Origin: Euglena gracilis | Taxonomy: Eukaryota | Direction of reading: 5' to 3' | Assembly: GCA_039621445.1 (NCBI GenBank) | Contig: CP154954.1 | Coordinates: 40,293,572 to 40,357,571 of the forward strand | Length of the DNA: 64,000 bases | Shown here: positions 30,716-54,141 of the stretch, in pieces | Layout of the letters: each line of letters opens with the position of its first letter | Position numbering within the stretch: position 1 is the stretch's first letter | The notes under the pieces: model-generated | Seen by the model: only the letters and a program-made list of their open reading frames with translations | What the model was told of the DNA's origin: nothing | The model's database searches: none | Program-made: the position numbers and the translations under genes

Positions 30716-31177
30716 CAGGGGGGGAAAAATGCGTTTCGCATTTTCCCGCATTTTTGCGCATTTTTTGCGCATTTTGTCAAATTTTCCAAAAATGCGCATT
30801 TTTTTGCGCATTTTTTCGCATTTTTTGCGCAAATTTTTTTCAGCGCATTTTTTTGCTTTTTGGCACATTTTTTCGTGATTTTCCAAAATTTTCGCATTTT
30901 TTGACCATTTTGCAATTTTTTGCAAAAATTTGAAATTTTCGACTTTTTTTTGAAACTTACATTTTCCTCATTATTCTACATAATTTCTTCAAATTTGGTG
31001 CCATTTTTTGCGTGTTTTTGGGTAATTTTTGCATTTTCGTGATTTTTGCGCATTTTTTCTCGGATTTTGCACATTTTTGCGCATTTTTTTCCAAAAATGC
31101 GCATTTTTTGCGCATTTTTTTTGCGCTTTTTTGCGCATTTTTTCCGAGGCCGGGCGAGCGCATTTCCCCCCCCCCTG
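30716..31177. mobile_element. TIR element with (TTTTGCGCAT)n interior (copy 58960-59401)
   Basis: CAGGGGGGG-AAAATGCG...CGCATTT-CCCCCCCTG ends; 7-bp TSD CTGTCGG. Confidence 0.72.
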
Positions 31178-34100
31178 CTGTCGGACCGAATAGCAAAATT
31201 TTTGCCCTATCCCTACTCCTTCAATCACGACTGAGAGAAAGTGTGGCAGGGGGATGGCGAAACAGAACCCCTCTCAGACACCCCCGCTTACCCCGCTTGG
31301 CACTTTCCCATTTCACCCGATTTTTCCGACAAATAAATGCTTTCAGCAACGATGTGGTTTTGCTTTTGAGAAGTTTGGTTAATCAATCTGGGACACCCAG
31401 TTAATCGCTTGGTCCCTGCTTTGGTGGTTAATTGATCATCCCTGCCACCCCCTGGGGGGGTCCAGGCAGCACCATTTTCCCAGCCGGTTCCCAATTTGGA
31501 GTCAAAACTGAATTTCAGCAGCAGGCATTTTTCTAATTTTTGCAATTCGGGGGCGTTGAGCGGTGGTCAGGCTTGCTTAGTGGGTGCACACCCATGGGGG
31601 GTGGGGGTGCTAGGGGCAGGCACCCCATAGCACCCGATCCGACCCCCCCCCCAGGGGGTAGGGTTTTGGGGGGGCCCATAGCAGGCACCCCTCCGACCCC
31701 GGCGCCGGGTGCCCGGAAAAGCCATTTTCGATGAAAAAATTGGGTCCCCAGACCCCCCCCCCGGGGTGTGTCTGCTAGGGGCAGGCACCATATAGCACCC
31801 CCCCGGGTTGGTAAGCACAAGCATGCCAGTGGTTGCGCTGGTGTTATGGGGTTTTGGGGTGGGGTGGGGAACAGGCATTCATTTGGTGTGGGACACCAAG
31901 GTTGTCATTTTGGGGTTCACTGTGGACACGAAAACTTTTTTTGTGGTTCATGTGTGGACACCAAAATTTTTGTGGTTCACCTGTGGACACCAAAAAAAAT
32001 TTGTGGTTCATGTGTGCCGCAACAAAAAATTTGATTGTGCGCCACGTGCACCGCGGAAAGCAGTTTTGTGCCGCGGCAAACTTCGCCGCGGCGAACTAAG
32101 TGAAAGTCTCAATCCAATGCGCTGCAAATCTTTTCTAAAAGAAGAAGGATTTGACAGTTGGGAAACGTTTCCATTAATCACCGTGGATGGCACGAATGGT
32201 GATTCCCCATCCGATCCCCAAAGGAGTTGGCAATGGTTGAGGAGGCCAAGAAATTGATTGGGTCCAATCCTCATTGTTGTGAGTGTTGGGGGGCTCCGTT
32301 TCATGCCCACCGGTGTCTGGGACCTCGAGGCATCGTGTTTCTGCCCGAAGGCATCGACTTGAATGTGTCCGCAGCAAAAATTTTATGTGGACCGCGTGCA
32401 GCGGAAAGAACTTGTGGGTTCGCCCCCCCTAAATGAAATCTGAATCCAATGTTGCGGCGCTACAAATTTTTGGAAAAATTTTTTTGAAGAGTGGAAGTGA
32501 CCATTTGGGGGGGAGAGGAAATGTGGAGGGGGGGAGGGGGGTGTGGGTTGTTTGGGGTGGTGCGTGGCTTGTGGGGGGGGGGGGTGTGGGTTGCCGGGTG
32601 GGTGTTGTTGTGGGGGGGGTTTTGGTTTGGTGTGTTGGGGCATGGGAGTGGGTGGGTGGGGGGGGGGGGCAGATTGATTTGGGGCTGGCTGGGGGTTCGT
32701 TTTTTTTGTGGTTGGTGTGGTGTGCGTGCACGTGGGGGTGGGGTGGGGGGGTGGGGTGGGGGGTGGGGGGGGGGTGGCTGTGGGGGGGGTGGGGGGTCTT
32801 AAAAGAAGCCTGGTCCACTTGGGGGGGGGGGAAAAATGCGGTTTTTTTGCATTTTTGGGTGGTGCATTTTTTGATGTTGTTTTTTTGCGTTTTTTTTTGC
32901 TGTTTTTTTTGTTTTTTCGATTTTTTTCCACTCTTTTTTTTTTTGTTTGAATTTTTTCTTTTTGTTTTTTTTTTTTTTTTGTTTTTTGTTTTTGTGTGTT
33001 TTTGTTTTGTTTTTTTGTTTTTTTTTTGCGTTCTCTTTTTTTTGCTTTTTTTTGCGTTTTTTTGTTTTTTTTTTTTTTTTTTTTTTTTGGTTTTGTTTTT
33101 TTTTTTTTGTTTTTTTTTTTTTTTTTTTTTTCCGACTTTTTTTGTTGTTTTTTTTTTTTTTTTTTTTTACTCCTTTTTTCAGTTTTGTTTTTTTTTTCCC
33201 ATTTCAACCCCAGATTTTTAAATTTTTTTTTTTTTTGAGAAGTGAATCAATCTGGGACACCCAGTTAATCGCTGGTCCCTGCTTGGTGGTTTTTGATCAT
33301 CCCCCCCCCCTGGCAGACCATTTCCCCCGGTTCCCCCACAGTCAAAACTGAATTTCAGCAGCAGTTTTTCTAATTTTTGCAATTCGGGGGCGTTGAGCGG
33401 TTTTTTGCTTAGTGGGGACACCCCAGGGGGGGGGGGGGGTGGGGTGCTAGGGGGGGCACCCATAGCACCCGACCGACCTCCCCCCCCGGGGGGTAGGGTT
33501 GGCCCATAGCAGGCCCCCCCCTCCGACCCCGGCGCCGGGTGCCGGAGGGAAAATTGGGTTCGGGAGGAAAAAGCGGCATTGGGGCAGAAGGGGGGGTGTG
33601 ATCAGTGGTTGCAGGTTATGGGGTTGGGTTGTGGGTGGTGGGGATGGGGACAGCATGCGGGTGGTTGGTGTGGTACACCAAGGTAGTCATTTTGTGGGTT
33701 CACTGTGGACACGAAAACTTTTTTGTTTTTGGATGTGTGGACACCAAAATTTTTTGTGGTTCACCTGTGGACACCAAAAAAAATTTGTGGTTCACATGTG
33801 TGCCGCAACAAAAATTTGAGCCCCACCCCCGAAAAAAAAAGCAGTTTTGTTAAAAAACTTGTGCCGCGGCGCACTAAGTGAAAAAATGCGGCAAATTCAA
33901 TAAAAAAGAAAAGGAAAAAACCGTGAAAGTGGAATGTGGGGGGAGGGGCCAAGAGGAAAAGATGTGGGAGTGTTGTGAGGGGGGGTCCGTCTTCATGCTG
34001 GGGAGGAACCGGGGTGGGGGGGGTGTGGGGGCGCCGCGTGGGGAATTTGTGGGGGTCGCCGCGGCGGGAGTTGCGGCGCTACAAATTTTTTGTGGTTTTT

Positions 34101-38919: not shown

Positions 38920-40764
38920 GTGTGGCAACCTGCAGCCTCTCCAACCTCCCATGTTGCTAGGGCAGTCCACAGGGGACCGGATTTTTGCTTTTTTTTGTCG
39001 CATTAAGGACCGCGCTTCAAGGTCTTGCCTTTAGGCCCAGTAGCCGGCCAAAGGCCGGACTGGGGCCTGACGAGATCAAAAATCGAAATCAAAAAATTTT
39101 CGATTTTTTTTGAAATGGGTTCTCATTTTTCCAAAGAATTTGGTGGCATTTTTTTTGCATGTTTTCCTTTTATTTCCACATGAAAAATCTTCCAGAAAAT
39201 CATTAACTGAGCATTTTTTGGTTTATTTTCAACGATGAAACAGGGATTTCCCAACAACTTTGGTGTTAGGTTCAGCATGCATGTGACCAGCCAAATGACC
39301 CCTCACCGGTCCATCCCCCCCATTCTCTCAGGTCGTTCCAAGTGTTCCCCGGCAGGAGGTATGTTTTTTTGGCCACCCCTGTTCTTTGCCATTGTATTGC
39401 CTGCCATTCACTGGCTTGTTTGCTGAGGGCTGCCCCCCCCCACCCAAGGCAGTACGGGAATCGGCGAAGCAGCCACGGTCAACCCCCTCCCCCCCAACAA
39501 CCAGCTGTATTCCCGGCAGCACCAATTTCGACCCCCCAATGAATTTTCCCCGCGGCTTTTGCGCCAGGCGGGTTTGTTTTAAAAAAATCTGTGGAAATGC
39601 TGTGGTGTGGGGGGTCAACCACCCCCCCACCGTGGGGGGTCAACCACCCCCCCCCCCACCGTGCTTTCCCGTGCAGTCCTGTCCCAGCATCGCCATCCGC
39701 ACACGTTGCGATGCGTTGCGCTCTTGTATCATAGAACGTTAAAAATTAACCAATAACCTGAGAATAAAGCAAGTGTCACCCATAACCTTGAAGAACAAGT
39801 TGATTAATTCCGCCCGCATTATTTTCTGTTTCAAAGAGCAATTTGTGGATGGTCTGACCCCCACCTTCCTGCAGTTTGAATTTGGCGGGGGAGGTTCCAG
39901 GTGCCTGTGAAAACCAAAACTCAAATTCATTTTTTTTTGTTCGCTGTTGTCATTTGAAGCAAAAGGATCCACAATTTTTTTGGGTTTGTGTGCAGAAGTC
40001 TCTAAATCATTTGGCATTCTTCCTCCAGTCATCAACCGAGTCCATCATTTTATGAATCCATCTCTCACCTTTCTTGAACCCACAGCACCCCTCAACCAAC
40101 CACCCACCCACCTGAAATCCAGCCAAGATCGGCTGTTCCATGTTTGTGGGAGATTATCTTCCCAGAACTAATTGCAGACAACATGGGGTTGCACTGGGAG
40201 GAATTTTATCGCGCAAAAGAATGCGCCGGGGAGGGCGAGAGCCCCTCCCCCCCATTTCAATTTAACCTTGCTATCAGAGAGCGAAAAATCCCCCACACCA
40301 CTCCACACTGATGTGCAGGTTGAGTGGGTTCCGTAAAGATGAAGCAAGAAGTTAAATTGGGATCAGGGTGAAGCCCGAAATTCGAAGACGGTTTTTTTTT
40401 CTGGAAAAACACCAATTCGGGAAAATGAGGGTCAGAAAAAAAATGTTTCCCCTAAACGGGCCCACCCCATGCAGGGGTTTTTTTAAGACCGGGGGGGGTC
40501 CTCCCCCCACACACCCACCCCCCTGGGCCCCCCAGGGTTCGATATGAGGAGGGCGTACGTGGTTTAGGTGGGGGGGGTGTCCCCCCACCCCCCCCCCTCA
40601 TGGCCAGCAGGGGTGGTCCGGACCCCCCCCTGGAAAGGGGGGGGGGGGGGGCCCCCCACCTGTCCTTATATCGATCCCTGGGGCCCACGGGGGTGAGAGG
40701 GGGTCCTGGGGGACCCACCAAAAATGGCCGAAAAATCGCGAAAAGTGCTAAAAATAGAATTTTT

Positions 40765-42129
40765 TCAGCGCCTGGGGCGCCGAATCGGACTCCGGTGAAG
40801 AATGATCCAGGAGGAAGGGACAGCGAAGGCGGAGCACAAGACAACAGTGAGGTCCTGCTCTTCTTTCCGGCTGTTGTTCTTTGGTTTGTGGTGTTGGTTG
40901 TGGTGCTTCTTACTGCGATGAGTTGTCGGAGTAGGCGGACTCGGAGACGGTGTCGGACTTGTCGGTGGGCGGCGGCGGGTTGCTGGCCTGTCTGTGTGTA
41001 AATTGAAACTTCTTGGGGGGGGGCCCCCCCTTGCCGACTTTTTTGCTCTCTTTCGGGTCGGGGGGGCGGGCTCACTGTTGTCTTGTGCTCCGCCTTCGCT
41101 GTCCCTTCCTCCTGGATCATTCTTCACCGGAGTCCGAGACAGCTCCGGCTCCGCAAAAGACCCCAGTGAGGCTTTGTGCACCAGGTTTTGGACAGCAACC
41201 CCTGCTTTTTTGCCCGCCTCCAACCGCAAATAATGGGAAGAGAAAGCCTGCACATTTTTCCATTTCCCAATTTGGCACACCTCCTCAGAGGACAACCCTG
41301 CCAGTTTATACATGTATACTCCCGCCCCCCTGGTGGAGTGGGGGGCCCATTGGGGGGGCACCCCATGCTTGGTTAGCAACCGTTTTGTCAAACTCCCAAT
41401 GGTTTTTGCAGACAGGGGTGTAAAAGGAGGTTTCAAGCTCAACAATAGAGGTCCCCCAGGGGGGGTACAATGAGATGTCAAACTGACATATTTTTTCATG
41501 TTGAACCAGGGGCAAATATTGGGGCAGGATGGAATTTGGGGAATTTCTTCCCACTGAGTCTGTTTCCAACCTTTCCTCCTGACCCTGACAAACACTTTGC
41601 CATCAATCTGGGACACTGTCCTGAAGGTTCTGCTCAAGTCCACTGAACGATGCAAACAGATGAGTCGGAAACTTAAAATGACTTGGTCCCTCAGATCACT
41701 GAGGCACTCTGGGGGAGGTGCTGCTGCCAATTTCTGGAGTAATGACTCAGGATTCCAAAAGGAAGGGTACCTGGGGGTGGATGTATTCCATTGTCTCTTG
41801 TAGGGGGTCAACAGTGGTAAAAACCTTAACATGTGAAACCCAGGAAGCTGGACCACAGCACTGTAAGCATTTCTGGCCTGGGCCACACTGGATGCCAGAA
41901 GCGAATATGGTGTTGAGGTCCAGTTGGGACATGGACAAAAATAAAGGCAGAATATAGGAAAGGGGGGCTGGTAGGAAAGGTGCAATGAGGGGGGGATCTG
42001 CTGTGCTAGCGAATAAAATGCAGGGAGGGGGTGGCTGGGTGGGATCGAACATGTGGGGCAAGAGATTCTCAGAGCTGGAGTGTGTGGAAGGTGTTTTAAA
42101 CAGGGCCACCACAGACTGAGCAGGGGCAC
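40765..42129 (-). CDS. DIRS tyrosine recombinase (true start uncertain; frame runs on through the ICR and ITR)
   Basis: LICLHRSVDL (R), PHSTRGAG (HxxR), IGKWKN...SSHY (W...Y) catalytic motifs. Confidence 0.88.
   Translation of the reverse strand: MPLLSLWWPCLKHLPHTPALRISCPTCSIPPSHPLPAFYSLAQQIPPSLHLSYQPPFPIFCLYFCPCPNWTSTPYSLLASSVAQARNAYSAVVQLPGFHMLRFLPLLTPYKRQWNTSTPRYPSFWNPESLLQKLAAAPPPECLSDLRDQVILSFRLICLHRSVDLSRTFRTVSQIDGKVFVRVRRKGWKQTQWEEIPQIPSCPNICPWFNMKKYVSLTSHCTPPGGPLLLSLKPPFTPLSAKTIGSLTKRLLTKHGVPPQWAPHSTRGAGVYMYKLAGLSSEEVCQIGKWKNVQAFSSHYLRLEAGKKAGVAVQNLVHKASLGSFAEPELSRTPVKNDPGGRDSEGGAQDNSEPAPPTRKRAKKSARGGPPPRSFNLHTDRPATRRRPPTSPTPSPSPPTPTTHRSKKHHNQHHKPKNNSRKEEQDLTVVLCSAFAVPSSWIILHRSPIRRPRR
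41071..41170. other. Internal complementary region (ICR) of the DIRS element
   Basis: 41071-41137 is the exact reverse complement of 40785-40851; 41138-41170 is the reverse complement of 50707-50739 with 1 mismatch. Confidence 0.92.
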
Positions 42130-42430
42130 ACGTGCTGTTCCTTCTCAGAGACAGGGTTTGTGTGCCTTGCATAAACTCTCTGAAAACATGTTCCAGGGAA
42201 ACAGTTCAAAAGGTGCCTGAATCCCCGAAAACGGCTGATGCATCGCTTTTCATGGGTTTGACAGGGGCATTTCTGGGGAATGTGAATGCAAACATAAAAG
42301 GGGGTAACTTTGAGATTTTTTCCCATGGAACTAGACCAGGTTTGACTTTGTGTCCGTTCAACGTTTTGAGGGGCCAAGTGACTTGGGGGTGTGATTCCAT
42401 CAACATTTACAGGGTTTGATGATGGGGTTC
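42100..42430 (-). pseudogene. Possible degraded DIRS adenine-methyltransferase-like domain
   Basis: Frameshifted fragments MFA...PRNA, RVYA..NP and LWWPCL lie between RNase H and YR, where DIRS elements carry an MT domain. Confidence 0.35.
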
Positions 42431-44306
42431 ATGACTTTTCTGGGAATTTCTTCCCCCAGTCCCAACTGATTGTCCTTTCATAATGTTGAGGGATGTTGTC
42501 CCCCATTTTCAGGGGCTGTGCTGCTGGGTCTCCTGAGCAATAGTAGTATGACACTTGTTGTCCCTGGACACTGTGTCCCTGGCCAGAGACCGGACAGTTG
42601 AGATGGCTGCGATCAATTCTTTTACATTTATGATGGGAATCTTTTCGCCAAAATTCCTGCAATCGGGTTCCAGCTTGTAGGTCTAGGCCTCCCCAGCCAA
42701 AGGTTGAACTGTCTGACTCCAGGTGTCTTGTGGCTGGGCTGGGGAAAGGTCTCCCCCCCCATGTTTGCAGGATTTCCCTGACCTCTTGCAGTTGAGATTT
42801 CACCTCTGCAGAGATTGGAACTTGATGATCCCAGCCAAATTTTTCTTGTAGGTTGACAAAACCTACCAAAGTGTCTGTGAATGCCCGAAGGAAAGGTAGC
42901 CCCACCAAGAAGCTTCTTATGCATCCCAAAATTGAAGCCATTTTTTTTTTATTTAGGAACTGGTGGGTCACCAATTTTCCCAGTTCCCTCCGAATTAATC
43001 TCAACTTTTCTGTCCCCAATTGCAACTTTCCCTGTGCCAGGTTGAGGTGGAAACCCAAATGAGGAAGATTTTGGGTGGGCTGCAAAAATGATTTTTTGCT
43101 GTTGATTTTGAAACCCCCTTGCAGTAAATCTGCCAGCATGATGGCCAGTTGGTTGCTGACTTGCTTCTGGCTGTCTCCTATCAGGAGAATGTCGTCCAGG
43201 TACACAAAACATAAAAGACCTTTCGCCCTCCAACGTTTTTCCAGGCATTTCATTAAGCTCATGAATTTTTCTGGCAGCACATTTAATCCAAAACAAGCTG
43301 CCTGGAATTCCCAGCATGTGTCTTCTAAAGTCATTCGCATGTATGGTCTTAACGTTGGGTTCAGCATTAAATGAAAGTAGGCGTCTTTCAAGTCTACTTT
43401 CGCACCCCATTGTCCTTTTTTCAGGTGTCTGAAGATGACCTGGATGTTGTCCAGTTTGAAAGGGTGTGGGGAAAAGTGCTTGTTCAGTTGGCGACAATCG
43501 CTGATTAACCGATGTTTTTCTCCCTGAGGTTCTCTTTTGGAGATTACAAACCAAGGGATGGTGTGTTTGGTACCCTCCCAGGGGACTGGTTTTATGGCTC
43601 CTGCCTCGAAATAGTCCTGCAAAATACTTTTTGCCTTTTGAATTTCCATCTCTGATTTTGGCATGCAATATGTGCTGAGGGGGGGGGCTGATTCCCAAGG
43701 GGGGGTTACTCCCTGCGTGATGAGGTGCAACACCCTGGGGGGGGCAACTTTCTGCCACCATGGCAACTGGGCCTGAAGCCTCTGAAACAGGGGCACTCCC
43801 AGAAAGTGCTCCTCTGTCAGCAGCAGCACCTCGGTGATCTGTTCCACAGATCTCAAGCTTGCAGCTTCCCACAGCTTGCAAATGTCTTGACTTCTGCCCT
43901 TCAAGGTTGGTTGAATTCCTGGCACAATGCCCAGCTTTGGGGGACACAATGTCCGTTGGGGACTTGATGAGTTCTGATCTGAAAAGGAAGGAGCAATACT
44001 TCCTGGCAAGGTGTTGGGCAAACCATTTTCCTCCTTTGGACTTTCCTTTCCCCTTGGGGCCAGACCGCCATGGTCTCGGTTGCCAATTTGGTGTCCATTG
44101 CTTGAACTTCCACCCTTTTCCACCTGTGGCGGTGGGAAAATGCCACATGGGGAATGTGCCCATGAAGGGGGAACTGATACCCTCTTTGTTGATGCCAGCT
44201 TGGGCCTTGGCCATCTTGATGTCTTCGGGGGTGAACAGGCCATTCCCTGGCTGTATGGTCTGGGGGATGCTCCTCCTCTTCCTCTCCTTGACAATGTCTC
44301 CTTCAC
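42429..44306 (-). CDS. DIRS reverse transcriptase / RNase H (RNase H end damaged)
   Basis: KHRLISDCRQLN, KVDLKDAYFH, CFGL, FVYLDDILL, HLGF, LESDSSTFGWGG. Confidence 0.92.
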   Translation of the reverse strand: MKETLSRRGRGGASPRPYSQGMACSPPKTSRWPRPKLASTKRVSVPPSWAHSPCGIFPPPQVEKGGSSSNGHQIGNRDHGGLAPRGKESPKEENGLPNTLPGSIAPSFSDQNSSSPQRTLCPPKLGIVPGIQPTLKGRSQDICKLWEAASLRSVEQITEVLLLTEEHFLGVPLFQRLQAQLPWWQKVAPPRVLHLITQGVTPPWESAPPLSTYCMPKSEMEIQKAKSILQDYFEAGAIKPVPWEGTKHTIPWFVISKREPQGEKHRLISDCRQLNKHFSPHPFKLDNIQVIFRHLKKGQWGAKVDLKDAYFHLMLNPTLRPYMRMTLEDTCWEFQAACFGLNVLPEKFMSLMKCLEKRWRAKGLLCFVYLDDILLIGDSQKQVSNQLAIMLADLLQGGFKINSKKSFLQPTQNLPHLGFHLNLAQGKLQLGTEKLRLIRRELGKLVTHQFLNKKKMASILGCIRSFLVGLPFLRAFTDTLVGFVNLQEKFGWDHQVPISAEVKSQLQEVREILQTWGGRPFPSPATRHLESDSSTFGWGGLDLQAGTRLQEFWRKDSHHKCKRIDRSHLNCPVSGQGHSVQGQQVSYYYCSGDPAAQPLKMGDNIPQHYERTISWDWGKKFPEKS

Positions 44307-45048
44307 AGGCAGCTACATATGCAAATAGTTGTTGGCTCAAACCCAGAACGTCTTCAGGGGCTCCTTGCAATGTGCAGTGCAGTGCTGCCAAGATACGCAA
44401 AATGTTCAAAAACTTTTGCTGGACCGCACGTAGAGTGCGGTCATACCCACTCTTGCCATCCTGGCGGTGGTTGTTCTCTTCCGCTTTGGGCTTCAGGGTC
44501 TTCCAGGTGGGTATCTGTTCCAGCAAACTTCGTACTTCCAACCGTAGGTCCCCGGATTGTACCTGCGTCCATATCCTCTCCAGGTCCCCCGGCAGTGCCT
44601 CCTCGGCCGTCTGCCAGGGGAAGTCCTGGGCTTCCTCCGCCGCGCGCGCCGCCTCGTCGTCGCGATCCATCTCCGTCGTCGTCGTCGTCGCCGTAGTCCA
44701 CTTCTCGTACAGCTTGAAGGCCACGTCCGACGCTTTGTCGCTCAGCTCCAGTGACGGTATTGAGACGTTCTTCGTGAGGGCCAGGCTGTAAAGGTATGCC
44801 GCCAAGTATGGTTGAAGTGTAGACTCCACCATAGCCACTCCAGTGAGCTTCCGTACCGCAAGGGCGCAGCGTGTGGTATCCCAGCCGGCTCCAGTCCACT
44901 TCTGTCCTGACCCAATCGTGGCCATCACGGTGGTAGCGTCCGCATCTCGTAGGAAAGCTGTTGTCAGCGATTCTTGTAAGAATACTTTGCTCCACGCCGC
45001 TTCGAAGGCCTCTTGGTCAGTTTCGTCTTGCAGTTGTTTGAATTGCAT
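42949..45048 (-). CDS. DIRS gag-like protein, continuing as an open frame overlapping RT
   Basis: First ~350 aa are homologous to the second element's first ORF (PWQ, KAEENNH, QQLF, KERKRRSIP, NGLF, HFP.G.KG.KFK). Confidence 0.75.
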   Translation of the reverse strand: MQFKQLQDETDQEAFEAAWSKVFLQESLTTAFLRDADATTVMATIGSGQKWTGAGWDTTRCALAVRKLTGVAMVESTLQPYLAAYLYSLALTKNVSIPSLELSDKASDVAFKLYEKWTTATTTTTEMDRDDEAARAAEEAQDFPWQTAEEALPGDLERIWTQVQSGDLRLEVRSLLEQIPTWKTLKPKAEENNHRQDGKSGYDRTLRAVQQKFLNILRILAALHCTLQGAPEDVLGLSQQLFAYVAACEGDIVKERKRRSIPQTIQPGNGLFTPEDIKMAKAQAGINKEGISSPFMGTFPMWHFPTATGGKGWKFKQWTPNWQPRPWRSGPKGKGKSKGGKWFAQHLARKYCSFLFRSELIKSPTDIVSPKAGHCARNSTNLEGQKSRHLQAVGSCKLEICGTDHRGAAADRGALSGSAPVSEASGPVAMVAESCPPQGVAPHHAGSNPPLGISPPPQHILHAKIRDGNSKGKKYFAGLFRGRSHKTSPLGGYQTHHPLVCNLQKRTSGRKTSVNQRLSPTEQALFPTPFQTGQHPGHLQTPEKRTMGCESRLERRLLSFNAEPNVKTIHANDFRRHMLGIPGSLFWIKCAARKIHELNEMPGKTLEGERSFMFCVPGRHSPDRRQPEASQQPTGHHAGRFTARGFQNQQQKIIFAAHPKSSSFGFPPQPGTGKVAIGDRKVEINSEGTGKIGDPPVPK

Positions 45049-45455
45049 GATCAGCTTGAGTAATTTGGTTGCAGCTCCGTGCCAAAAGGACGATTATGAT
45101 CCGCCTACTCCGGCAAAGAAAAGCAGTAAGAAGCACCACAACCAACACCAAAAGTCGCGAAATAATTGGCGCAAAGTACATCGCGTGTGCAGGTGGGCAG
45201 AAGTGGATTGAGTGCGCTGATTCCTAAGCGCTCTCAACAACGCGCGACAAAGCTTTCTGTGTCTGGATTTGAAGTGCTTCGACCGAGTTTCGCGAAGCCT
45301 CAACCAACCCTCGTGCCCTGAATTCTTTGTTTTGCTTGACATCATCTGAGTTTTCTTTAGGAATACAGCTCTCTGATCTTCCACCTACAGTCCACTTCGT
45401 CAACTCCGCCCCTGCCCCCAACATCCGAGGACAGGGGGACGCCCCTGTTCCTCCC

Positions 45456-48400
45456 ATGTGTCAAGAGGCGCCCCATCCCGCCCGCCGCCCAGGGCCCCCA
45501 GAGGGGGACGCCCCCATCCTGAGATGCGCCCAAACCGTGAGCAGCAAAGGCAATGACCTGGGGGTGATGCCGCCAAGGCTCCCGCCCCCAGCGAGCCTGG
45601 GCGAGTCTCCCTGCTCCTCCCCCCCGAGGGCAGCTTCACCCCACCGACGCCCCCAAAGCACCAGCAGGCTGGCCCACACGTTAGCGGCGTTTTCGCTGGG
45701 CTGTGATCCGAGGGAGACGCCGCCAAGGATCTCTCCCTCGGTGAGCCCGGGCGGGCCTGTCCCTCCCCATGGTGCTGCCGCAGTCCCCACTGCTGGCCAT
45801 CCCCCCTTCCCGTCCCCGAGATGCGCCCAAACCGTGAGCAGTGAAGGCAATGACCTGGGGGTGATGCCGCCAAGGCTCCCGCCCCCAGCGAGCCTGGGCG
45901 AGTCTCCCTGCTCCTCCCCCCCGAGGGCAGCTTCACCCCACCGACGCCCCCAAAGCACCAGCAGGCTGGCCCACACGTTAGCGGCGTTTTCGCTGGGCTG
46001 TGATCCGAGGGAGACGCCGCCAAGGATCTCTCCCTCGGTGAGCCCGGGCGGGCCTGTCCCTCCCCATGGTGCTGCCGCAGTCCCCACTGCTGGCTCGCCC
46101 CCCCCTCCCACCCCAAGGCGTGCCCAACCCCGTCCCCACCACAGCCCACCCAGCACCATTCACTTTCGGCCTCCAACCTCAATCGCCACGATCCCGAGCT
46201 GCCTTTCGTCCCCTTCTTCTCCCGTCCTCTTTTGTCCCCTTTCCATCCCCTCCCTGGCTTTCCCTCCATGGTTCCACATTTGCGATCCAGGTCTTCAACT
46301 ATCCTCATTGCATTCACAAAGTTCATGGGTGCGGGACCTCTGCAAGGATGGAGATATCGAGTCAAATCCGGGGCCGACTTCACCTTCGGATCCTGGGGCA
46401 GCTTTCATGGCGGTGAATCAGTCAGCTGCGGTCATCAACCTAGCGCCTCCACCACCGTCTGCCTCCTCCTCTGCTTCCGCACCGGCAGGACCAAACCAGC
46501 GGGCACGTAAGCGAAGAGCTGAGCGCGGTCCAGATTCCTCAGATTCCGAGGAAGAGGGCCCAGGCCTTTTCCATTGCCCGTTTCCCCACTGCTGCAAGTC
46601 CCTCCGACACAGCTTTCAGGGTTGGAACACAAAGCGGCTCGCCACAAACCATGTAGCAATGGTCCACGTCGCCGCAGGAGAGATGCCTTCGTCTGTTTGG
46701 CTTCGGGACGCACAACGCTGGGTGTGTGGACATTGCCTCAAGCTCCTCCCAGAAGGCAAACGGTGTGCAGGTGAGAATTGCTACCGAGTGCGACCGGACT
46801 CCACCCCAACCCGTCTCCCTCCTGCAAGCCACCCACCACTAGCCCATGCAGCCGTGAGCTCATCCTCAAGCAACCGCATGCCTCCATCCACGCCATTGGA
46901 CGCACCGAATGCGCTTATGTCATCAGCAATTCACGAGATTCTGTCCACCACAAGGCCTCTGTTCCGGCACATCCCGCGTGCGGCTGTCACATTGTGGGGT
47001 GTGGCCTGGGCTGAGCTGCAACAGCGCCTCTGCTCTGAACGTTCGTGGGAGGCACTCCGAGACTGGGCCCTGTTCCAAAAGGTGACCCTCTGGTCGCCTC
47101 GAGGTGGCAAGGGCCACAAGGGACAAGCCGCCCAACTCATCAGATCACGAGTTGATCGCTTCAAGGCAGGAGACCTGGCTTCTTTGTGGGACGAGTTTCG
47201 CCAAGGCATCCCTCGGCCGGACCGCAAGAAGAAAAAAAGCACGGCATTTCCATCCCTGGAGGACAAAGTGGACAGGCTGCAGGAAGCCCCATTCCTGAAC
47301 ACGCTGCGGGGCTTGATGGAAGATGGAGCATTTGGCAAGGCAGTGCGCCATCTCATGTCTGATGGGTTGCACGATCCGTTGGACCACAAGGTGCAGGCAA
47401 AGCTCAGAGACCTGCATCCCAGAAGGCCAGAAGTCATCGTGGTGGAGCCTGTCTCCAAAGTGTTTCCATTCCCGAAGGAGGAATCCTCTCAAGAGCAACA
47501 TGACTTGAATAAGTTTCTCCGTGAGACGTTACTCTCTTTTCCAAGAGCAGCCGCAGCAGGCCCAGATGGACTCCGACCCCAACACCTCCAGGACGTCGTG
47601 CGTGTGGACGCCGGTGCAGCAATGGTGTTGGCAGCGCTGCGCACGTTCTCCAAAGCGGCCCTGGAAGGGTCACTGCCAGCACAAGCAATGCCATTCATCT
47701 CATCGGCCAGCTTGATTCCATTGCGGAAGGACGGCCCCAGTGGCAGTCTGAACATTCGCCCCATTGCAGTGGGGAACACCCTCCGCCGCTTTGTGGGCAA
47801 GTTCGCCATGACCTCACCGTGTGTCAAGCAACGGGCATCAGAGCTGCACCCGCATCAATGCGGAGTCACCACCGAAGGGGCTTGTGAGACCATAGCCCAA
47901 GGGGTGCAATCATTTGCAGAACACGGCCAAGGAGACACATGGGCTATCCTGCAAGTGGACCTACAGAACGCGTTCAACGCAATTGACCGGCAAGCCCTCC
48001 TGAAAGCAGTCCGCAATCGGGCCCCAGAGCTTGAGGCATGGGCACGTTTGTCTTACGCACAGCATTCCGCCCTCTACAACCATGGACACCGTATGACCAG
48101 TGAGCAAGGAGTGCAGCAAGGAGACCCTTTGGGTCCCCTCTTCTTTGCATTGGCGTGGCAAGATGTGGTCCTGGCGCTGCCCAAAGGTTTGAAGATGAAC
48201 GTGTGGTATCTGGATGATGGTCACCTCGTGGGTTCCATGGACACCTTGGCCGCAGCTTTGGCAACCATCAGCCTGAGTTCTGCACATCTGGGCGTGCATC
48301 TCAACCTCCAAAAATGTCGCCTGTGGGGTCCTGCACAGACACCGACATCGGATGGAAACCATTTCGATTTGTTGCGATCAATCCCCCGAGTACCTTGGAT

Positions 48401-49928
48401 GCCAGACCATGGGCTGCGGGTCCTCGGCTTCCCAGTGGAACACCCACTTTCAACATCCTTCCGCAAAGCCGAGATGCAAGGGGCAGTGGACAAGCTCCAA
48501 GAAGCATGCCACGTCCTCACCAACCTGGGAGATCCTCAGGTTGAGCATGTGCTCTTGCGTTACTGTCTTGATGCCTGCAAGGTGATGCATTTCCTACGTA
48601 CCATGAACATGGACACCCTACAAGAGCCAATCCAAGCAGCGGCGCGGATCATCCGGAAGACATGGGATGACATCATGGGCCAGCCAGCTTCAAATGATGC
48701 ACAATGGACACAGTGTTCGCTCCCTCTACGCTTGGCCGGTCTCGGGGTGAAGGATCCCCTCGTCCTCCAAGCACCAGCCAGAATGGCAGGGATTCTATGT
48801 GCACAACAGCGGTCACAACTGTTGAGGTTTCCGCCCGAGGCTTGTGCCTTGCCCCCTGATTTCAAGAAGGTGGCTGTGGATCTGCGCGGCACACTCGGCC
48901 CTCAGTTCGAGCCACTGCCAGATTGGATTGAGAAGAATCAACCATCGGACGTAGAAGAAGACCACAGAAGGCAACAGTGGTGGACAGACAAAGTGCACCA
49001 AGCAAGGAAAGAAGCTTTGAAGAACATCTTGCCACAACGAGACAAATGCCGCCTCCGACTACAATCGATGCCCCATACAACCGCCTGGCTCCAAACGATA
49101 CCAAACAAAGGCATGGGAACCAAAATCCCAGCAACAAAGTACCGCCTCCTCCTCCGATGGTGGCTCGGTGCCAAGGTCCTCCCGGGCTCGTCTGGTGCTC
49201 CTTGCCCCCTGTGTGGAGACTCCATGGATCCCTTTGGGGACCACCTGCTATGCTGCAAAAAGAACAAACTCGTGCAACGTCACAACGCTGTGCGGGACGC
49301 ACTGGCAATGGTCCTCAGAGAGCATGGAGTACACACCAAGACAGAGGTGGCTATCGGTGGGAAGAGGCGCCCAGCGGATGTGGCCCTGCAAGGGGTTGAC
49401 CCTGTCGGGCCGTTGGCAGTCGACCTCGTAGTGTTCCACCCCCTCCGGAAGGATTTGTCGTGGGACGAGGACATTGCTTTAAGGAACATGGCAGCAATGG
49501 AACACAAGAAGGTCACAAAGAACCAACCTGTCTGTGAAGCCGCAGGATGGTTATTCAGCCCCCTGTCTTTCCATCCGTGGTCGGGCTTGGGCCCATTGGG
49601 GTCTGGTCTCCTCGGCCGCTTGGTGAAGCAAGCCCTCGGTGACAAGCAAGGATGGGCAAGGCAGCACCTGGCCGCAGACATTTGGCAACGTATATCCGCA
49701 ACCTTGATGGCCTTTGTGGCTGAACAGCTTTCTGCCGCCGCTACAACCAGAGGGCATGAGGAATTACCTCCAACGGCCACGCCGCAAGAGACGCCGACGA
49801 GAACCATGAGCATACAAGGAGCCACCGCAGTGGCGGCGGTGGACATGGAAGGATGGCAAAGAGTGCGCCAAGCCGAGGATGGGACCCTTGTCGGCCCCAT
49901 TCGCATCCAGTGCACCCGCCCGAGGTGA
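45456..49928 (+). CDS. LINE polyprotein: Pro-rich repeats, 2A, Zn fingers, RT, CCHC knuckle, restriction-like endonuclease (first ATG 45456; frame open from 45327)
   Basis: AGPDGLRPQHL, RPIAVGNTLRR, VDLQNAFN, GVQQGDPLGP, WYLDD; CPLC..DHLLCC, RHN, RPAD, D, KK. Confidence 0.95.
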   Translation: MCQEAPHPARRPGPPEGDAPILRCAQTVSSKGNDLGVMPPRLPPPASLGESPCSSPPRAASPHRRPQSTSRLAHTLAAFSLGCDPRETPPRISPSVSPGGPVPPHGAAAVPTAGHPPFPSPRCAQTVSSEGNDLGVMPPRLPPPASLGESPCSSPPRAASPHRRPQSTSRLAHTLAAFSLGCDPRETPPRISPSVSPGGPVPPHGAAAVPTAGSPPPPTPRRAQPRPHHSPPSTIHFRPPTSIATIPSCLSSPSSPVLFCPLSIPSLAFPPWFHICDPGLQLSSLHSQSSWVRDLCKDGDIESNPGPTSPSDPGAAFMAVNQSAAVINLAPPPPSASSSASAPAGPNQRARKRRAERGPDSSDSEEEGPGLFHCPFPHCCKSLRHSFQGWNTKRLATNHVAMVHVAAGEMPSSVWLRDAQRWVCGHCLKLLPEGKRCAGENCYRVRPDSTPTRLPPASHPPLAHAAVSSSSSNRMPPSTPLDAPNALMSSAIHEILSTTRPLFRHIPRAAVTLWGVAWAELQQRLCSERSWEALRDWALFQKVTLWSPRGGKGHKGQAAQLIRSRVDRFKAGDLASLWDEFRQGIPRPDRKKKKSTAFPSLEDKVDRLQEAPFLNTLRGLMEDGAFGKAVRHLMSDGLHDPLDHKVQAKLRDLHPRRPEVIVVEPVSKVFPFPKEESSQEQHDLNKFLRETLLSFPRAAAAGPDGLRPQHLQDVVRVDAGAAMVLAALRTFSKAALEGSLPAQAMPFISSASLIPLRKDGPSGSLNIRPIAVGNTLRRFVGKFAMTSPCVKQRASELHPHQCGVTTEGACETIAQGVQSFAEHGQGDTWAILQVDLQNAFNAIDRQALLKAVRNRAPELEAWARLSYAQHSALYNHGHRMTSEQGVQQGDPLGPLFFALAWQDVVLALPKGLKMNVWYLDDGHLVGSMDTLAAALATISLSSAHLGVHLNLQKCRLWGPAQTPTSDGNHFDLLRSIPRVPWMPDHGLRVLGFPVEHPLSTSFRKAEMQGAVDKLQEACHVLTNLGDPQVEHVLLRYCLDACKVMHFLRTMNMDTLQEPIQAAARIIRKTWDDIMGQPASNDAQWTQCSLPLRLAGLGVKDPLVLQAPARMAGILCAQQRSQLLRFPPEACALPPDFKKVAVDLRGTLGPQFEPLPDWIEKNQPSDVEEDHRRQQWWTDKVHQARKEALKNILPQRDKCRLRLQSMPHTTAWLQTIPNKGMGTKIPATKYRLLLRWWLGAKVLPGSSGAPCPLCGDSMDPFGDHLLCCKKNKLVQRHNAVRDALAMVLREHGVHTKTEVAIGGKRRPADVALQGVDPVGPLAVDLVVFHPLRKDLSWDEDIALRNMAAMEHKKVTKNQPVCEAAGWLFSPLSFHPWSGLGPLGSGLLGRLVKQALGDKQGWARQHLAADIWQRISATLMAFVAEQLSAAATTRGHEELPPTATPQETPTRTMSIQGATAVAAVDMEGWQRVRQAEDGTLVGPIRIQCTRPR
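45521..46114 (+). repeat. Two in-frame 297-bp (99-codon) tandem repeats in the LINE 5' region
   Basis: GAGATGCGCCCAAACCGTGAGCAG starts at 45521 and 45818; near-identical over ~277 bp. Confidence 0.93.
46326..46376 (+). other. 2A-like ribosomal skipping (StopGo) motif WVRDLCKDGDIESNPGP
   Basis: Exact match to D(V/I)ExNPGP preceded by G, in frame with RT. Confidence 0.85.
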
Positions 49929-50154
49929 GACCCCTCGGAAGAGGACATGGTAGCACCATCTCCGACACAAAAAAAATAGAAAAGGGCCCACACCCCTCTG
50001 GGTAAGGCCATCGAGAATCGAAGTGAAAGCGCCCAAGTGACAGGCGGGTGCAACGGCTCGCGGTGACCCGTCCCGACGGCAAAGAACAGCACGCGGACAC
50101 GGGCGACACGCCCGCACGGGCGACGCGCGGGCACGACACGCGCGAAACACGTGC

Positions 50155-50404
50155 GAGCCGTGCCGAGCCGTGCCGAGCCGTGCCGAGCCGTGCCGAGCCG
50201 TGCCGAGCCGTGCCGAGCCGTGCCGAGCCGTGCCGAGCCGTGCCGAGCCGTGCCGAGCCGTGCCGAGCCGTGCCGAGCCGTGCCGAGCCGTGCCGAGCCG
50301 TGCCGAGCCGTGCCGAGCCGTGCCGAGCCGTGCCGAGCCGTGCCGAGCCGTGCCGAGCCGTGCCGAGCCGTGCCGAGCCGTGCCGAGCCGTGCCGAGCCG
50401 TGCC
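50155..50404 (+). repeat. (GAGCCGTGCC)x25 perfect minisatellite in the LINE 3' UTR
   Basis: Direct reading; lies between the stop codon and the poly(A). Confidence 0.97.
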
Positions 50405-50873
50405 TAAAAAAAAAATCCCAAATTCTTGCCCATTGCATCAAAAAAAAAAAAAAAAAAGGTGGGCAGAAGGGCCGGTATGATTGGCTCTGTCCCGAAAAGA
50501 CAGCATGGTAAACACACCTCAGAGAACGCTGAAAGGACAGTCGAACCCGAAACCTCCATTGAGCACACCGGGGAATAGCCTGCCCCCATCAATGCCACCC
50601 CACCCCGCCTGCTACCTCACCCCTCGGACTCTGGCCCCTACATGGCCGATTCCGGGTTCACCAACACCACAAACCAAAGAACAACAGCCGGAAAGAAGAG
50701 CAGGACCTCACTGGGGTCTTGTGCGGAGCCGGAGCTGTCAGTATATCCCACCCCCCTCCGGGGGGGAGGGGGTCCGGCGGACCCACCTCCCCCCCCCGGG
50801 GTCCAAACTTAAAAATATCCCTGACCCCATGCTGGCGTCTCTGAAGCGGTGGGGCATCCACTCAAAAAAAAAG

Positions 50874-50976
50874 GACCACTCGGGCTCCGCACTGCGAGAT
50901 GGTGAGGCCCTGCTTTCTTTGCCGGCTGTTCTGTTCTGGTGTGTTTGTGCGTGCGCGGGGAATGCTTCCTACTGCT
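50874..50976 (+). mobile_element. Left terminus fragment of a third DIRS-family element
   Basis: GAC..CGGGCTCCGCAC...GTGAGGCCCTGCT...CCGGCTGTT...GCTTCCTACTGCT parallels the 5' ends of the other two elements. Confidence 0.65.
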
Positions 50977-53900
50977 GACCATTCGGGCTTCGCACCTTCA
51001 GGGGGTGAGATCCTGCTTTGTGTGCCGGCTGTTTTGTTGTTTGTGTTCTTTTTTGGCGGGGTGCTTCTTACTGCTTTTTGGTGCCGGAGTTGGCGGATAT
51101 TAACGCCCTTCGACAACATCAAAATGGCAACGTACGCAGAAATCTTGACATCAGAGGATGAATCAGTTTTCGACAATTCGTGGAGCGAGCTCTTTTTCAA
51201 CGGGGACAAGGTGGCGAAGCTATTGGCGGAGTCGTCCCCGGAATCCCTCGTCGCCGTCATCGCGGCCGGGCAGAACTGGCTGGGAGGCGGATGGCACACG
51301 ACGAAGTGCGCAAAGAAGGTCCACGAGTTGACCCAGGTGGCGATGGTCTCCAGCCAAGTCGGAGACTACAGGAATTCGTTCTTGTACTCGGTGGCGTTGG
51401 CAGGAAGTGTGGAGGTACCACTGATTGACTTGGGGCAGACAGCAGCGGACGTGGCGTTCAAGTTGGCGGATCGTTGGCTGGAGAAGAGTTCGAAGAAAGA
51501 CAAAGGGATGACGCCACGAGCGGAGCGGTCCGCGATGGAGGAGGACGGAGAAGACGAGGAGGACAACGACAACGACGACGCGGAAGAACGGCTCCCCTGG
51601 CAGGAAGAACTGGCGCCCCTGGCGCCAGAGCTGGCAGCGTGCCTTCGGCACGTCGAAAAGGGAGTGAGACTCCCCTGGAAGATGGTCCTGGGGGAGCTGC
51701 CCAGGTATAACGGGATGAAAAGTCGTGCAGAGGATAACAATCACAACGCAGACGGCAAAGGGGCCTGGGATAAACAATTGAAGTCATGGCAACAAAAGAT
51801 GTTACACCTGGAAAGGATGGTGGCATGCCTGTATGGCAGTGTGGAGACAGATTATCAAATATTGGCACAACAATTGTTTTTTGCTGTAGCAGAGATGGAA
51901 CAGACACTGCTGAAGGAGAGGAAGAGGTGCAGCATTCCAGGGGCAATCCCCAGCACCAACAACGGGCTGTTCTCCAAAGAAGACTTGGCTGTGGACAAAG
52001 CCCAATGGGCTCTGAATCAAGCAGGCTTGGCAACAGCCTTTTCAAGACATTCTATGTCTCATTTTCCCATCCCCACAGGAAATAAAGGATTTAAGTTCAA
52101 GTGGGGCAAAGGCAAAGGCTATGGCAGCCAAGGCAAGGCTGGGAGGGGAAAAGGCTATGGCAGCCTGTGGAAGAACCCAGGATGGCAGAAGGGGTATGGA
52201 TACCCTACTGAATCTTCCCACTCCCTACTCATGCCACAGGAAAGGCAAGGGCAAAGCCTGAAGCATCAAAGCCTGAAGCATCAAAGTCCCCAAGAAGGGG
52301 TGAAGCCATCACAGCCAGACCATCAATGGAGTGGGGGAGAGACCCCCCAGCTGAGCTCCATGGAGGAGGTAATCCCCCTGCTGACCCCTGCTCTGAAGCC
52401 ATCCCCAGTCTGGCAAGGGCTCATGGGGACAGGGGCCTGGCCCAGCACAAACTCCCCCCCTATGGAATGGGAGAGAGGAATCATTCAAAGCCTGGATTTC
52501 AGAGAAAGGGCCTGGGAAAAGGTGCCTCTGTTTCAGAGACTAAGAAAATGTCTGCCATGGTGGCAGGAAAATGCAAATCAGTGGGTAGTAGCACTAATTC
52601 AAAAAGGTGTGCAGCCAGACCACCCCCTACCTCGGGTCTGTCAAAAAGGCAGCAGCAAAAGTCAGTGCAGGAAATCAGCCTGGCCTCCAAAATCTTGCAG
52701 GAGTACCAAGAAAGTGGGGCAACCAAAAAAGTACAAAATGCCCAAGACACTGCCCATCTGGTACCCTGGTTTGTGTTGTCCAAACCAGAAGGGGAGGGGG
52801 TCAAGCATCGACTTATCACAGATTGTCGAGATCTAAATCAATTTTGCTGTCCAGAGAAGTTCACTTTGGAAAACATGTCCACAATTTTCCCCACTCTAAA
52901 AAAGGGGGATTGGGCAGTCAAACTAGATTTGAAAGATGCATACTTTCATCTGCATACTTTCATCTGGGTCTGGAAAAAGATTTCAAAAAATTTGTCAGAA
53001 TTCAAGTGGGATCAGACCTGTGGGAGTTTCAGGGGGCCTGTTTTGGCCTAAGCACCCTCCCAAAATTGTTCATGTCACTAATGAAAGTTCTGTTAAAACT
53101 GTGGAGGTCAAAGGGAATGCAGGTGTTCGTCTATTTGGACGACATCATTCTGTTTGGTTCAACAGAAAATTTGGTGAAAAAACATTTACTGCAAATGCTG
53201 GACACATTAGGGGAGGCTGGGTTCAAGGTCAGCCAGAAAAAGTCTGTGTTTACTCCCACACAAAGGCTGCAGCATTTGGGGTTCATCATAGACTGGGAAA
53301 AAGGTCAACTGGAGGTGCCCCCACACAAACTAAAAACTATCAGAAAGGAACTGGGCAAGGTGGTGCTGGCCCAAAAACTAAGCTGCAGAAAAATAGCCAG
53401 CATTCTGGGGCAAGTCAGAAGTTACCTCCCTGCTCTGCCATTTTTAAGGCTGGTAACCCAGGAGCTTTTAAAGTTCAGCCAGATGCACCAAGAAAGGGGC
53501 TGGGATTTTTGCATCGACATTCCAGAAAGGCTGAAAGGGGAAATCAAAGTGCTGAAGGCATACTTGCAGCCAGGCCTGGGCAGGCCTTTCCTGCAACAGG
53601 CAAAAAGGGTGCTCCATTCAGACTCCTCCACATGGGCATGGGGGGGAGTGGATTCATCCCAAAATCAAATCATCCAAGAATTTTGGAGGGAGAAAAATTG
53701 CCTACACATAAATGTGAAAGAATTGATGGCAGCTGTTCAGACAGTAAAAGCATTTGCCCAGCCAGGGGAGACAGTGCTGTTAAATGTGGACAATCAGGTA
53801 GCACTGAGTTACCTTACCAAATGGGGAGGCAGAAAAACACACCTCAATCAGATTTTGGAACCCCTGTTTCATTGGTGTTGGGAAAACCAAGTTCAGTTGC

Positions 53901-54024
53901 AGGTTCAGTGGGTTCCTTCAGCAGCAATGTTGGCAGACCCCCTCACAAGGTGGGATCAAGACAGGGGGGATTATACCCTGTGCCCAAAACTGTTCACCCA
54001 AATTTTGAGGTTCTTCAGAAAGGA
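50977..54024 (+). mobile_element. Second DIRS-type retrotransposon, 3'-truncated after RNase H (no YR, ICR or right ITR)
   Basis: Homologous left end, gag and RT/RH; breaks into an unrelated repeat at ~54025. Confidence 0.88.
51124..54024 (+). pseudogene. DIRS gag-RT-RNase H with at least two frameshifts
   Basis: ATG 51124; KHRLITDCRDLN, KLDLKDAYFH, FVYLDD, HSDSS, HINVKEL, VDNQVA, LADPLTR; shifts at ~52635 and at a 14-bp duplication (52937-52964). Confidence 0.88.
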
Positions 54025-54141
54025 CACTGGACGGACGGACTGCCGGCGCGGCTGAAGCGGCGGGATGGCTTTCAAGTCCCGTATTGAGAATTTCCGGATG
54101 TTCTGGGTGTTCCCGAACAAGGAGGTGCAGTACCCGCACCC

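Follow-up and report, generated by a model that had tools for sequence, protein, structure and literature searches.

Does the single long open reading frame (ORF) of a Euglena gracilis retrotransposon yield one protein or two? The question is raised by a 64,000-nt stretch of genomic DNA (assembly GCA_039621445.1, contig CP154954.1, positions 40,293,572 to 40,357,571, forward strand; the whole of it is called the window, with positions counted from its first letter), which contains a non-LTR (long terminal repeat) retrotransposon, or long interspersed nuclear element (LINE), at 45204-50457 (5254 bp). The element has a single ORF, listed as 45327-49928 (+, 1533 aa), with the stop-to-stop frame open from 45273. 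In this frame, WVRDLCKDGDIESNPGP is encoded at 46326-46376 (+; TGG GTG CGG GAC CTC TGC AAG GAT GGA GAT ATC GAG TCA AAT CCG GGG CCG). It was assigned as a 2A, or StopGo, peptide, WVRDLCKDGDIESNPG|P, from its motif, its frame, a shuffle test and a viral signature. At StopGo sites, the nascent 2A sequence in the exit tunnel of the ribosome prevents formation of the bond between Gly and Pro-tRNA (PMC12846837; PMC3708506); the break is predicted here between the G at 46371-46373 and the P at 46374-46376. An earlier reading of the letters alone (the original prediction) had placed an in-frame 2A at these positions, on the border between a leader and an enzyme. Translation, the ORF frame and shuffled sequences confirmed the site and its frame, and the border is where it had been drawn, with a Pro-rich repeat leader before the motif and zinc fingers, a reverse transcriptase (RT) and a restriction-like endonuclease (RLE) after it.

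To what extent could such a motif arise by chance? The core octapeptide DIESNPGP (46353-46376, in frame) matches D[VI]ExNPGP, a pattern found once in the six frames of the window and never in 200 block shuffles (mean 0.0). The shorter pattern E.NPGP also occurred once (shuffle mean 0.03), and bare NPGP twice (shuffle mean 1.3); the second NPGP, at 27743, reads WGNPGP and was set aside as an ordinary chance match. The residues ahead of the core are likewise those of a StopGo site. A 2026 PNAS study of nearly 10,000 viral StopGo sites names DLTxDG as upstream 'motif 4', for which the signature reads WV(R/K)DLTx[acidic]G together with D at p12 and S at p15 (PMC12846837). The window peptide, WVRDLCKDG, fits this signature at eight of its nine positions, the sole departure being C for T, and has the D at p12 and the S at p15 that the signature demands. 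We conclude that the 2A motif at 46326-46376 is real and not a chance match. Among the variants listed for contigs from public sequencing runs, none that was well supported fell inside 46326-46376, and no conclusion on conservation among copies was drawn from this.

StopGo calls for translation from upstream, with a nascent chain of at least about 30 codons ahead of the site, and we asked whether the sequence upstream of the motif has the character of a translated region. A 5' untranslated leader of 252 nt (45204-45455, +) contains zero ATG in any frame, and the first ATG of the element in any frame, at 45456, is in the ORF frame and precedes the break by 306 codons. Not one of the 368 ORF-frame codons between 45273 and the 2A is a stop, whereas the remaining forward frames hold 12 and 9 over this stretch. 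Much of this stretch consists of a tandem repeat (45521-46109, +; 2.0 copies, 97% matches, Tandem Repeats Finder) whose unit of 297 bp (99 codons) is a multiple of three, and each repeat carries an in-frame ATG (45567, 45864). Because stops are absent from this frame alone, the first ATG lies in it and the repeat length is divisible by three, the upstream frame is, by the measure of sequence statistics, kept open. The predicted upstream StopGo product (45456-46373, +; 306 aa) ends ...DIESNPG and is rich in Pro (22%), Ser (14%) and Arg, with an isoelectric point (pI) of 9.2. No Pfam family matches it, nor does it resemble the leader of the relative P0001 (best E 0.66), whose enzyme is 64% identical. 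The leaders of P0001 and of another relative, P0070, are also built of tandem repeats, with periods of ~78 and ~70 aa, respectively. Within 45310-46502, single low-depth contigs of one public run (X1) showed skips of 72, 113 and 178 nt and a repeat junction returning 288 nt, so the length of the leader varies between copies.

The predicted downstream product is an enzyme of 1184 aa with a Pro start (46374-49928, +; stop codon 49926-49928, last sense codon ending at 49925), in good agreement with the ~1180 aa that the original prediction had given. Its N-terminal zinc-finger region (46563-46820, +, located by alignment) comprises a C2H2-type CPFPHC...H...H pattern, which lies 67 aa after the 2A, and a second CxxC...C. 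An AlphaFold2 model of the product (mean predicted local distance difference test score 85.6, predicted template modelling score 0.80) was well folded over the zinc-finger region, residues 80-165; the first 78 residues were predicted to be disordered except for a short conserved helix (GAAF...LA). The RT core lies at 47754-48329 (+; Pfam RVT_1 E 7.9e-12, ORF residues 810-1001), and a CCHC zinc knuckle with the RLE, recognized by motifs and by a profile match to the R2Tg C-terminus, at 49203-49595 (+).

If the motif serves the element, it should be found in related elements also. Searches returned 12,765 family representatives at E <= 1e-3 and 1071 at E <= 1e-30; 170 proteins (21 + 149), most of them cut at the N-end, were examined. 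There were 14 strict D[VI]ExNPGP motifs in 12 of the 170 relatives, all N-terminal to the zinc finger or the RT. In addition, two HPNPGP variants occur in P0149 and further HPGP variants in P0025 and P0153; P0018 and P0141, which were left uncounted, have bare NPGP elsewhere only. An RT-RLE tree was built from 100 rows, the window element and 99 proteins spanning query residues 420-1080; the other 71 proteins were excluded, among them the 2A-bearing but C-terminally cut P0046, P0070 and P0153. The window element falls inside an 18-row clade (Shimodaira-Hasegawa-like approximate likelihood ratio test support 98) whose members are 31-67% identical to its enzyme. Of the 10 clade rows whose N-end is known, 9 have a 2A, as do 2 of the 19 such rows outside the clade; at least four state changes are needed over these 29 rows. 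Loss of the motif from sister copies had been named beforehand as something that would refute the original prediction; in sister elements it was retained, with unrelated leaders in front of it. Since nine of ten clade rows carry the motif at 31-67% identity, the 2A is, judged from these alignments, conserved by descent and kept through deep divergence.

The motifs of the relatives are of two types. The first, W-x-R-(D/N)-L-(C/T)-x-D-G, is that of the window element, P0001, P0070 and P0046. The second, GRG-xx-L-x-(S/T)-C-G followed by D(V/I)ExNPGP, is found in P0005, P0007, P0025, P0027 and P0031; P0030, whose N-end is cut, ends its 2A with SLLSCG-DVEANPGP, as in type two. This second type, absent from the window's copy, closely resembles the T2A peptide of Thosea asigna virus, EGRGSLLTCGDVEENPGP (PMC9317149), with one extra residue between GRG and CGD (compare GRGETLTSCGDVEENPGP of P0005, GRGAALLSCGDVEANPGP of P0027 and GRGDALATCGDIESNPGP of P0007). 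Two or three 2A motifs stand in a row in P0025, P0027, P0046 and P0153. P0025, P0027 and P0031 share a further order of parts, in which a Dam-like N6-adenine methyltransferase (PF05869, E 1.7e-7 to 3.3e-6, NPPF motif) is followed by one to three 2A motifs and then by ZnF-RT-RLE. Two distant relatives have a different addition: P0147 carries at its C-terminal end an MLLE domain (the C-terminal domain of poly(A)-binding protein, PABP; E 3e-12), and P0149 has a weak MLLE match upstream of the RT that is below the Pfam cutoff (E 0.002, 18.5 vs 27 bits). Both have a 2A or HPNPGP variant near the N-terminus. Further afield, 80 distant metagenome loci (24-34% identity) were kept, of which one (L006) had a 2A-like motif. 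In this RT-RLE locus (270-3776, +) the Leu-rich 2A-like WLIFVLLFLAGDVEVNPGP lies 26 codons after an upstream stop with no prior in-frame Met; L006 may be a dead copy, or may use a translation start of a kind invisible on the contig. No relative of the element was found in the viral contigs searched, and two further protein searches with the 2A-ZnF part returned no additional relatives.

Taken together, we think it probable that the one ORF is expressed as two proteins through StopGo (2A) recoding. Ribosomes would start at the first AUG (45456), or at the in-frame AUG of a later 297-bp repeat, and would first translate the fast-evolving, repeat-built, Pro-rich leader. WVRDLCKDG-DIESNPG, as nascent chain in the exit tunnel, would then block the peptide bond to Pro-tRNA; the leader would be released and translation would resume at the Pro of 46374, giving the 1184-aa ZnF-RT-RLE enzyme with an N-terminus that stays constant whatever lies upstream. 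A fixed N-terminus irrespective of the number of upstream repeats had been part of the original prediction, and the anatomy of the locus, with its open leader frame, an in-frame AUG in each repeat and a leader that is not conserved, appears to fit it. Less firmly, the device may uncouple the enzyme from a variable 5' region (tandem monomers here, the Dam-like domain in sisters), the 5' repeat arrays may serve as promoter monomers, and the 2A may set the ratio of enzyme to leader.

Several points weigh against two-protein expression. The conserved T of DLTxDG is replaced by C in the window element, as it is in P0001 and P0070. The device is dispensable, since P0022, a clade member whose N-end is complete, lacks a 2A. 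The relatives are machine-called proteins, whose first M may be an artefact; the sequences of P0004 and P0030 start inside the motif or just ahead of it. As the leader has no recognizable domain and is not conserved, its translation could be incidental. Two published assay results also suggest that 'Stop' may outweigh 'Go'. The last 17 residues of Kunsagivirus C1 2A1 all agree with those of P0046's second 2A (WQRDLTQDGDVESNPGP), and in vitro this viral 2A was reported to give [GFP-2A] and no downstream GUS (PMC11512398); of the ORF2p-associated 2A-like peptides assayed in a June 2026 preprint, 59% lowered protein abundance instead of just skipping (10.64898/2026.06.17.732966). Separately, 46299-46501, 2A included, is missing from a single low-depth contig of run X1 (depth 179), so a few copies of the element lack the motif.

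The last two assay results suggest a different emphasis, in which the 2A would be mainly a translational brake: the leader is released, translation mostly does not resume and the RT-RLE is kept low, a self-attenuation with co-production of two proteins as a side effect. The reduced abundance seen also for 70% of the ORF1p-associated 2A-like peptides in the same preprint agrees with this, and the arrays of two or three motifs in P0025, P0027, P0046 and P0153 would multiply the effect. However, the closest assayed viral sequence is not the kunsagiviral one. Aalivirus B1 2A3 (...GWVRDLTVDGDVESNPGP) has 14 of 17 residues in common with the window 2A and was about as active in vitro as the 2A of foot-and-mouth disease virus, with a downstream product (PMC11512398), and in reticulocyte lysate StopGo was almost 100% for a motif-4 example, an activity nearly abolished when the characteristic residues were mutated (PMC12846837). 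Nor would a brake alone explain why the 2A is always placed just where a variable leader meets the conserved enzyme. We regard a predominant braking role, the main rival explanation, as unlikely; it overlaps with two-protein expression by StopGo and does not exclude it. A related possibility concerns the leader, which could be a real ORF1-like protein (disordered, basic, and RNA-binding or condensate-forming), so that the 2A would yield an 'ORF1p' and an 'ORF2p', a scheme already proposed for APE-type LINEs with no ORF1 of their own. The clearly maintained frame, the basic (pI 9.2) and Pro/Ser/Arg-rich composition, the genuine domain that precedes the 2A in P0025, P0027 and P0031 (Dam, PF05869), and the link drawn by Odon et al. 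(2013; PMC3708506) between 2A and one-ORF LINEs all speak for it. Still, the leader has neither a family match nor similarity to the leader of a relative with a 64% identical enzyme, and it is built of nearly identical 99-aa repeats, a pattern better fitted by a constraint at the DNA level or on length only than by a conserved protein function; we hold the ORF1-like role to be rather unlikely.

Could the motif instead be an inactive relic or passenger? The enzyme would then be made from the AUG at 46404, and the open upstream frame would be an accident of GC-rich sequence. The window copy does have this in-frame Met, about 10-11 residues after the 2A Pro; the region is 64% G+C, with long ORFs open on the opposite strand too; and the RNA-type contigs of two public runs (X15, X20) leave 46029-46688, and with it the 2A region, uncovered and are therefore silent on 2A expression. 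Yet the Met of 46404 is not conserved, being Leu in P0001, P0004 and P0022. No Met follows the 2A in P0001, P0046 and P0005 until past the point where the conserved zinc finger starts; in these relatives a zinc finger would be made only by ribosomes that pass the 2A. The 12 and 9 stops in the other forward frames of the same stretch, the position in frame of the first AUG of the element (45456) and the canonical motif in 9 of 10 clade members with a known N-end at 31-67% identity also weigh against a relic. Because of this conservation, these frame statistics and the want of a conserved downstream start codon, a functionless relic is very improbable.

What kind of LINE carries the motif? The original prediction had called it RLE-type, and the nuclease region supports this. 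With the W of the 2A numbered 1, the CCHC residues are C960, C963, H973 and C977, followed by the RH motif (R985, H986), E1007, a PAD motif whose D1018 opens strand 2, D1033 in strand 3 and K1062 in helix 2. In a 51-sequence alignment, H986, E1007, D1018 and D1033 were invariant, and the four CCHC residues, R985 and K1062 were kept in at least 90% of the sequences. The nuclease of R2Bm has RH, PD..D and helix-2 lysine motifs of the PD-(D/E)XK type (PMC4838377). A family profile built from 51 members matched R2 proteins (E 4.7e-36) in two separately significant stretches, the RT (R2Tg, E 7.7e-25) and profile positions 801-1000, which matched the CCHC and nuclease part of the R2Tg C-terminus (E 2.1e-9); LINE-1 ORF2p was matched in the RT only (~1e-15). 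In a Foldseek search of the model against the PDB, ranks 1-7 were all R2 proteins (E 7.7e-22 to 1.5e-17, 900-1200 aligned columns), followed by LINE-1 ORF2p and Prp8. No apurinic/apyrimidinic endonuclease-like (APE) domain was found: RVT_1 was the sole Pfam family at E <= 0.1, and the N-terminal part folds as zinc fingers and helices. From the C-terminal R2-like nuclease motifs, the R2 profile and Foldseek matches and the lack of an APE, the enzyme is RLE-type and R2-like, without an APE.

The resemblance to R2 has limits. The R2 proteins (R2Tg 9dou and 9nl3; Platysternon R2 9nl2; R2Bm 8gh6 and 8ibw) have the same order of ZnF, RT, CCHC and RLE, yet the structural alignments give just 14-15% identity to the window enzyme. 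The literature searched reports no 2A in R2, and the window copy lies outside rDNA, with a 12-bp duplication and poly(A). A narrower assignment made by the original prediction, to the CRE clade, stays putative; the RT-RLE tree consists of the window element and its 99 family relatives, and the best matches among solved relatives are R2 proteins. Members of the CRE clade (CRE1/2, SLACS, CZAR and, as listed in the original prediction, Cnl1 and MoTeR) insert site-specifically into spliced-leader genes or telomeric repeats. An inverted pair of RT-bearing retroelements flanks the window copy, which is in neither a spliced-leader gene nor rDNA.

A comparison with LINEs known to bear 2A shows what is shared and what differs. 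In APE-type LINEs, D(V/I)ExNPGP is located in the N-terminal part of a long RT ORF, mostly the only ORF, with a presumed role in protein biogenesis (PMC3708506), and the window element is alike in this. Such LINEs include L1Tc/ingi of trypanosomes and Rex1, Crack, L2, L2A and CR1 elements of sea urchin, amphioxus, Nematostella and molluscs (Heras 2006; PMC3708506). In contrast to them, the window element has no N-terminal APE and has, as R2 does, a C-terminal CCHC and PD-(D/E)XK nuclease; and its 2A is preceded by a 306-aa tandem-repeat leader rather than by a few residues. Outside the classical APE clades, 2A-like sequences are reported in protist and algal LINEs, namely Dualen/RandI of Haematococcus lacustris and the ORF2p of Symbiodinium necroappetens (10.64898/2026.06.17.732966), with a deubiquitinase or a pentatricopeptide repeat (PPR) domain upstream in those proteins. 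Dualen/RandI elements carry both an APE domain and an endonuclease domain that is restriction-enzyme-like (REL-endo) (PMC3708506, introduction), whereas the window element has no APE-family Pfam match. This absence and the zinc fingers and helices of the N-terminal region speak against membership in Dualen/RandI. The viral motif-4 2As belong to RNA-virus polyproteins, whereas the window 2A belongs to a cellular retroelement and has C for T. Gene transfer from viruses was considered and not adopted: about 15 of the 17 positions shared by Kunsagivirus C1 2A1 and P0046 are fixed by function, so that an identity lying almost wholly at such positions is no proof of transfer.

The original prediction had also supposed that no 2A had been described in an RLE-type LINE, and this needs some qualification. 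In Odon et al. (2013; PMC3708506), 2A-like sequences are described only in the APE-type clades Rex1, Crack, L2, L2A, CR1 and Ingi, with REL-endo clades appearing as background only, as they do in the companion review. The main text of a 2025 Cell Reports survey does not assign its retrotransposons to types (PMC12338488). In the June 2026 preprint, most ORF2p cases include an APE, and 'RLE', 'zinc' and 'methyltransferase' are absent from the main text (10.64898/2026.06.17.732966); a September 2026 preprint counts 330 contigs with class A 2A in RT elements, mostly non-LTR-like, in a text that gives no endonuclease type (10.64898/2026.09.24.754024). Searches of the literature for 2A with RLE/REL-endo, SLACS, CZAR, NeSL and R2 returned no title or abstract describing a 2A in an RLE-only LINE, though survey supplements may list such elements. 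Novelty for an RLE-only LINE thus stands as far as these searches reach, and it does not extend to 2A-like sequences beside a REL-endo in general, which are already on record in Dualen/RandI (APE plus REL-endo), nor to the many unclassified non-LTR contigs. Most likely, to judge from the comparisons made here, the present element extends the use of 2A from other LINE groups to an RLE-type, R2-like LINE.

Published work ties retrotransposon 2A to 'young' APE-type LINEs and dates the acquisition of 2A thereby (Odon et al., 2013; PMC3708506). A 2A conserved in an R2-like lineage, down to ~31% identity, shows that the device is not bound to one endonuclease type and extends its use to early-branching LINEs. 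The family also offers natural and compact examples of leader-2A-enzyme, methyltransferase-2A-enzyme and tandem 2A arrays, in which the balance of stop and go in non-animal eukaryotes could be followed; and since R2-type proteins are now engineered for gene insertion, a native means by which such elements trim their N-terminus may have practical interest. A much broader proposal, which we consider doubtful, is that StopGo is an old inherited part of a whole clade of RLE-type LINEs and no late addition to APE-type elements, that LINEs and RNA viruses draw on one pool of 2A sequences with protist retroelements as a possible reservoir or source, and that in the window's lineage the 2A acts as an insulator letting promoter-like 297-bp monomers be translated and discarded. 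If so, the 5' end could expand and contract without touching the enzyme. Both upstream-motif families employed by animal picornaviruses and tetraviruses occur in this one clade, the WV(R/K)DLTxDG type (one copy matching a kunsagivirus 2A at 17 of 17 residues) and the T2A type.

The borders of the element bear on its age. A 12-mer, GGTGGGCAGAAG, is present exactly twice in the window, as the 5' (45192-45203) and 3' (50458-50469) copies of a target-site duplication that bracket the LINE, and the 3' copy abuts an A18 tail (50440-50457). Both the tail and the duplicated 12-mer are hallmarks of target-primed reverse transcription, with some ambiguity over the 5' limit. The 3' untranslated region contains a perfect-looking microsatellite, (CGTGCCGAGC) x 25.6 with a 10-bp unit (50150-50404, +; tandem-repeat scan), after which come, within 50406-50457, an A10 run, 24 bases and the terminal A18. 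There is no second copy of the element within the 64-kb window. In one public DNA run, 3016 contig pieces were 90-100% identical to the element, and half or more of its sampled words were present in 14 of the 24 runs listed. Given the perfect 12-bp duplication, the A18 tail and the 3016 contig pieces, the element is a young, intact, high-copy non-LTR retrotransposon of the RLE, R2-like type.

In contigs of other copies, 45205-45237 runs without a gap into the 3' end, and the true 5' limit may thus be 45238. These 33 nt continue into ATCCCAAATCCTTGCCCATTGCATCAAAAT, which nearly equals the last 24 nt of the window copy ahead of A18 (region 50415-50445), in contigs of X1 (12 times), X5 (3 times), X15 and X20. 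In X5, X15 and X20 a common sequence, TTTGATGCCCTGGATGGGCAGTTAAATTTA, precedes the 33 nt; it opens with an imperfect inverted repeat of the 3' piece. The junction contigs may represent an abundant short derivative that retains only the two ends of the LINE; alternatively, the LINE body (45238-50414) may be enclosed by a short unit, present in many copies, that is its preferred target. The common sequence before 45205 in X5, X15 and X20 could be a preferred target or a longer 5' end. In one RNA-type contig, the microsatellite stands directly before position 45286 of another copy, which hints at nested or tandem copies.

The retroelements that flank the LINE lie head-to-head at 40452-45153 (-) and 50481-54087 (+) and carry RT domains (Pfam RVT_1 E 1.7e-15 and 1.4e-14, respectively) and long gag-like ORFs; they may be DIRS/Ngaro-like. 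They have a 5' sequence in common, in that 45101-45153 resembles 40938-40886 and 51096-51060. An origin of the Dam-like domain of the sister lineages from these flanking retroelements was considered and dropped, tblastn matches being weak (best E 0.07). Farther upstream, 22001-34000 is strongly asymmetric between strands: GC skew reaches 0.34, and AT skew ranges from +0.43 to -0.39. This stretch probably holds other repeats or satellites.

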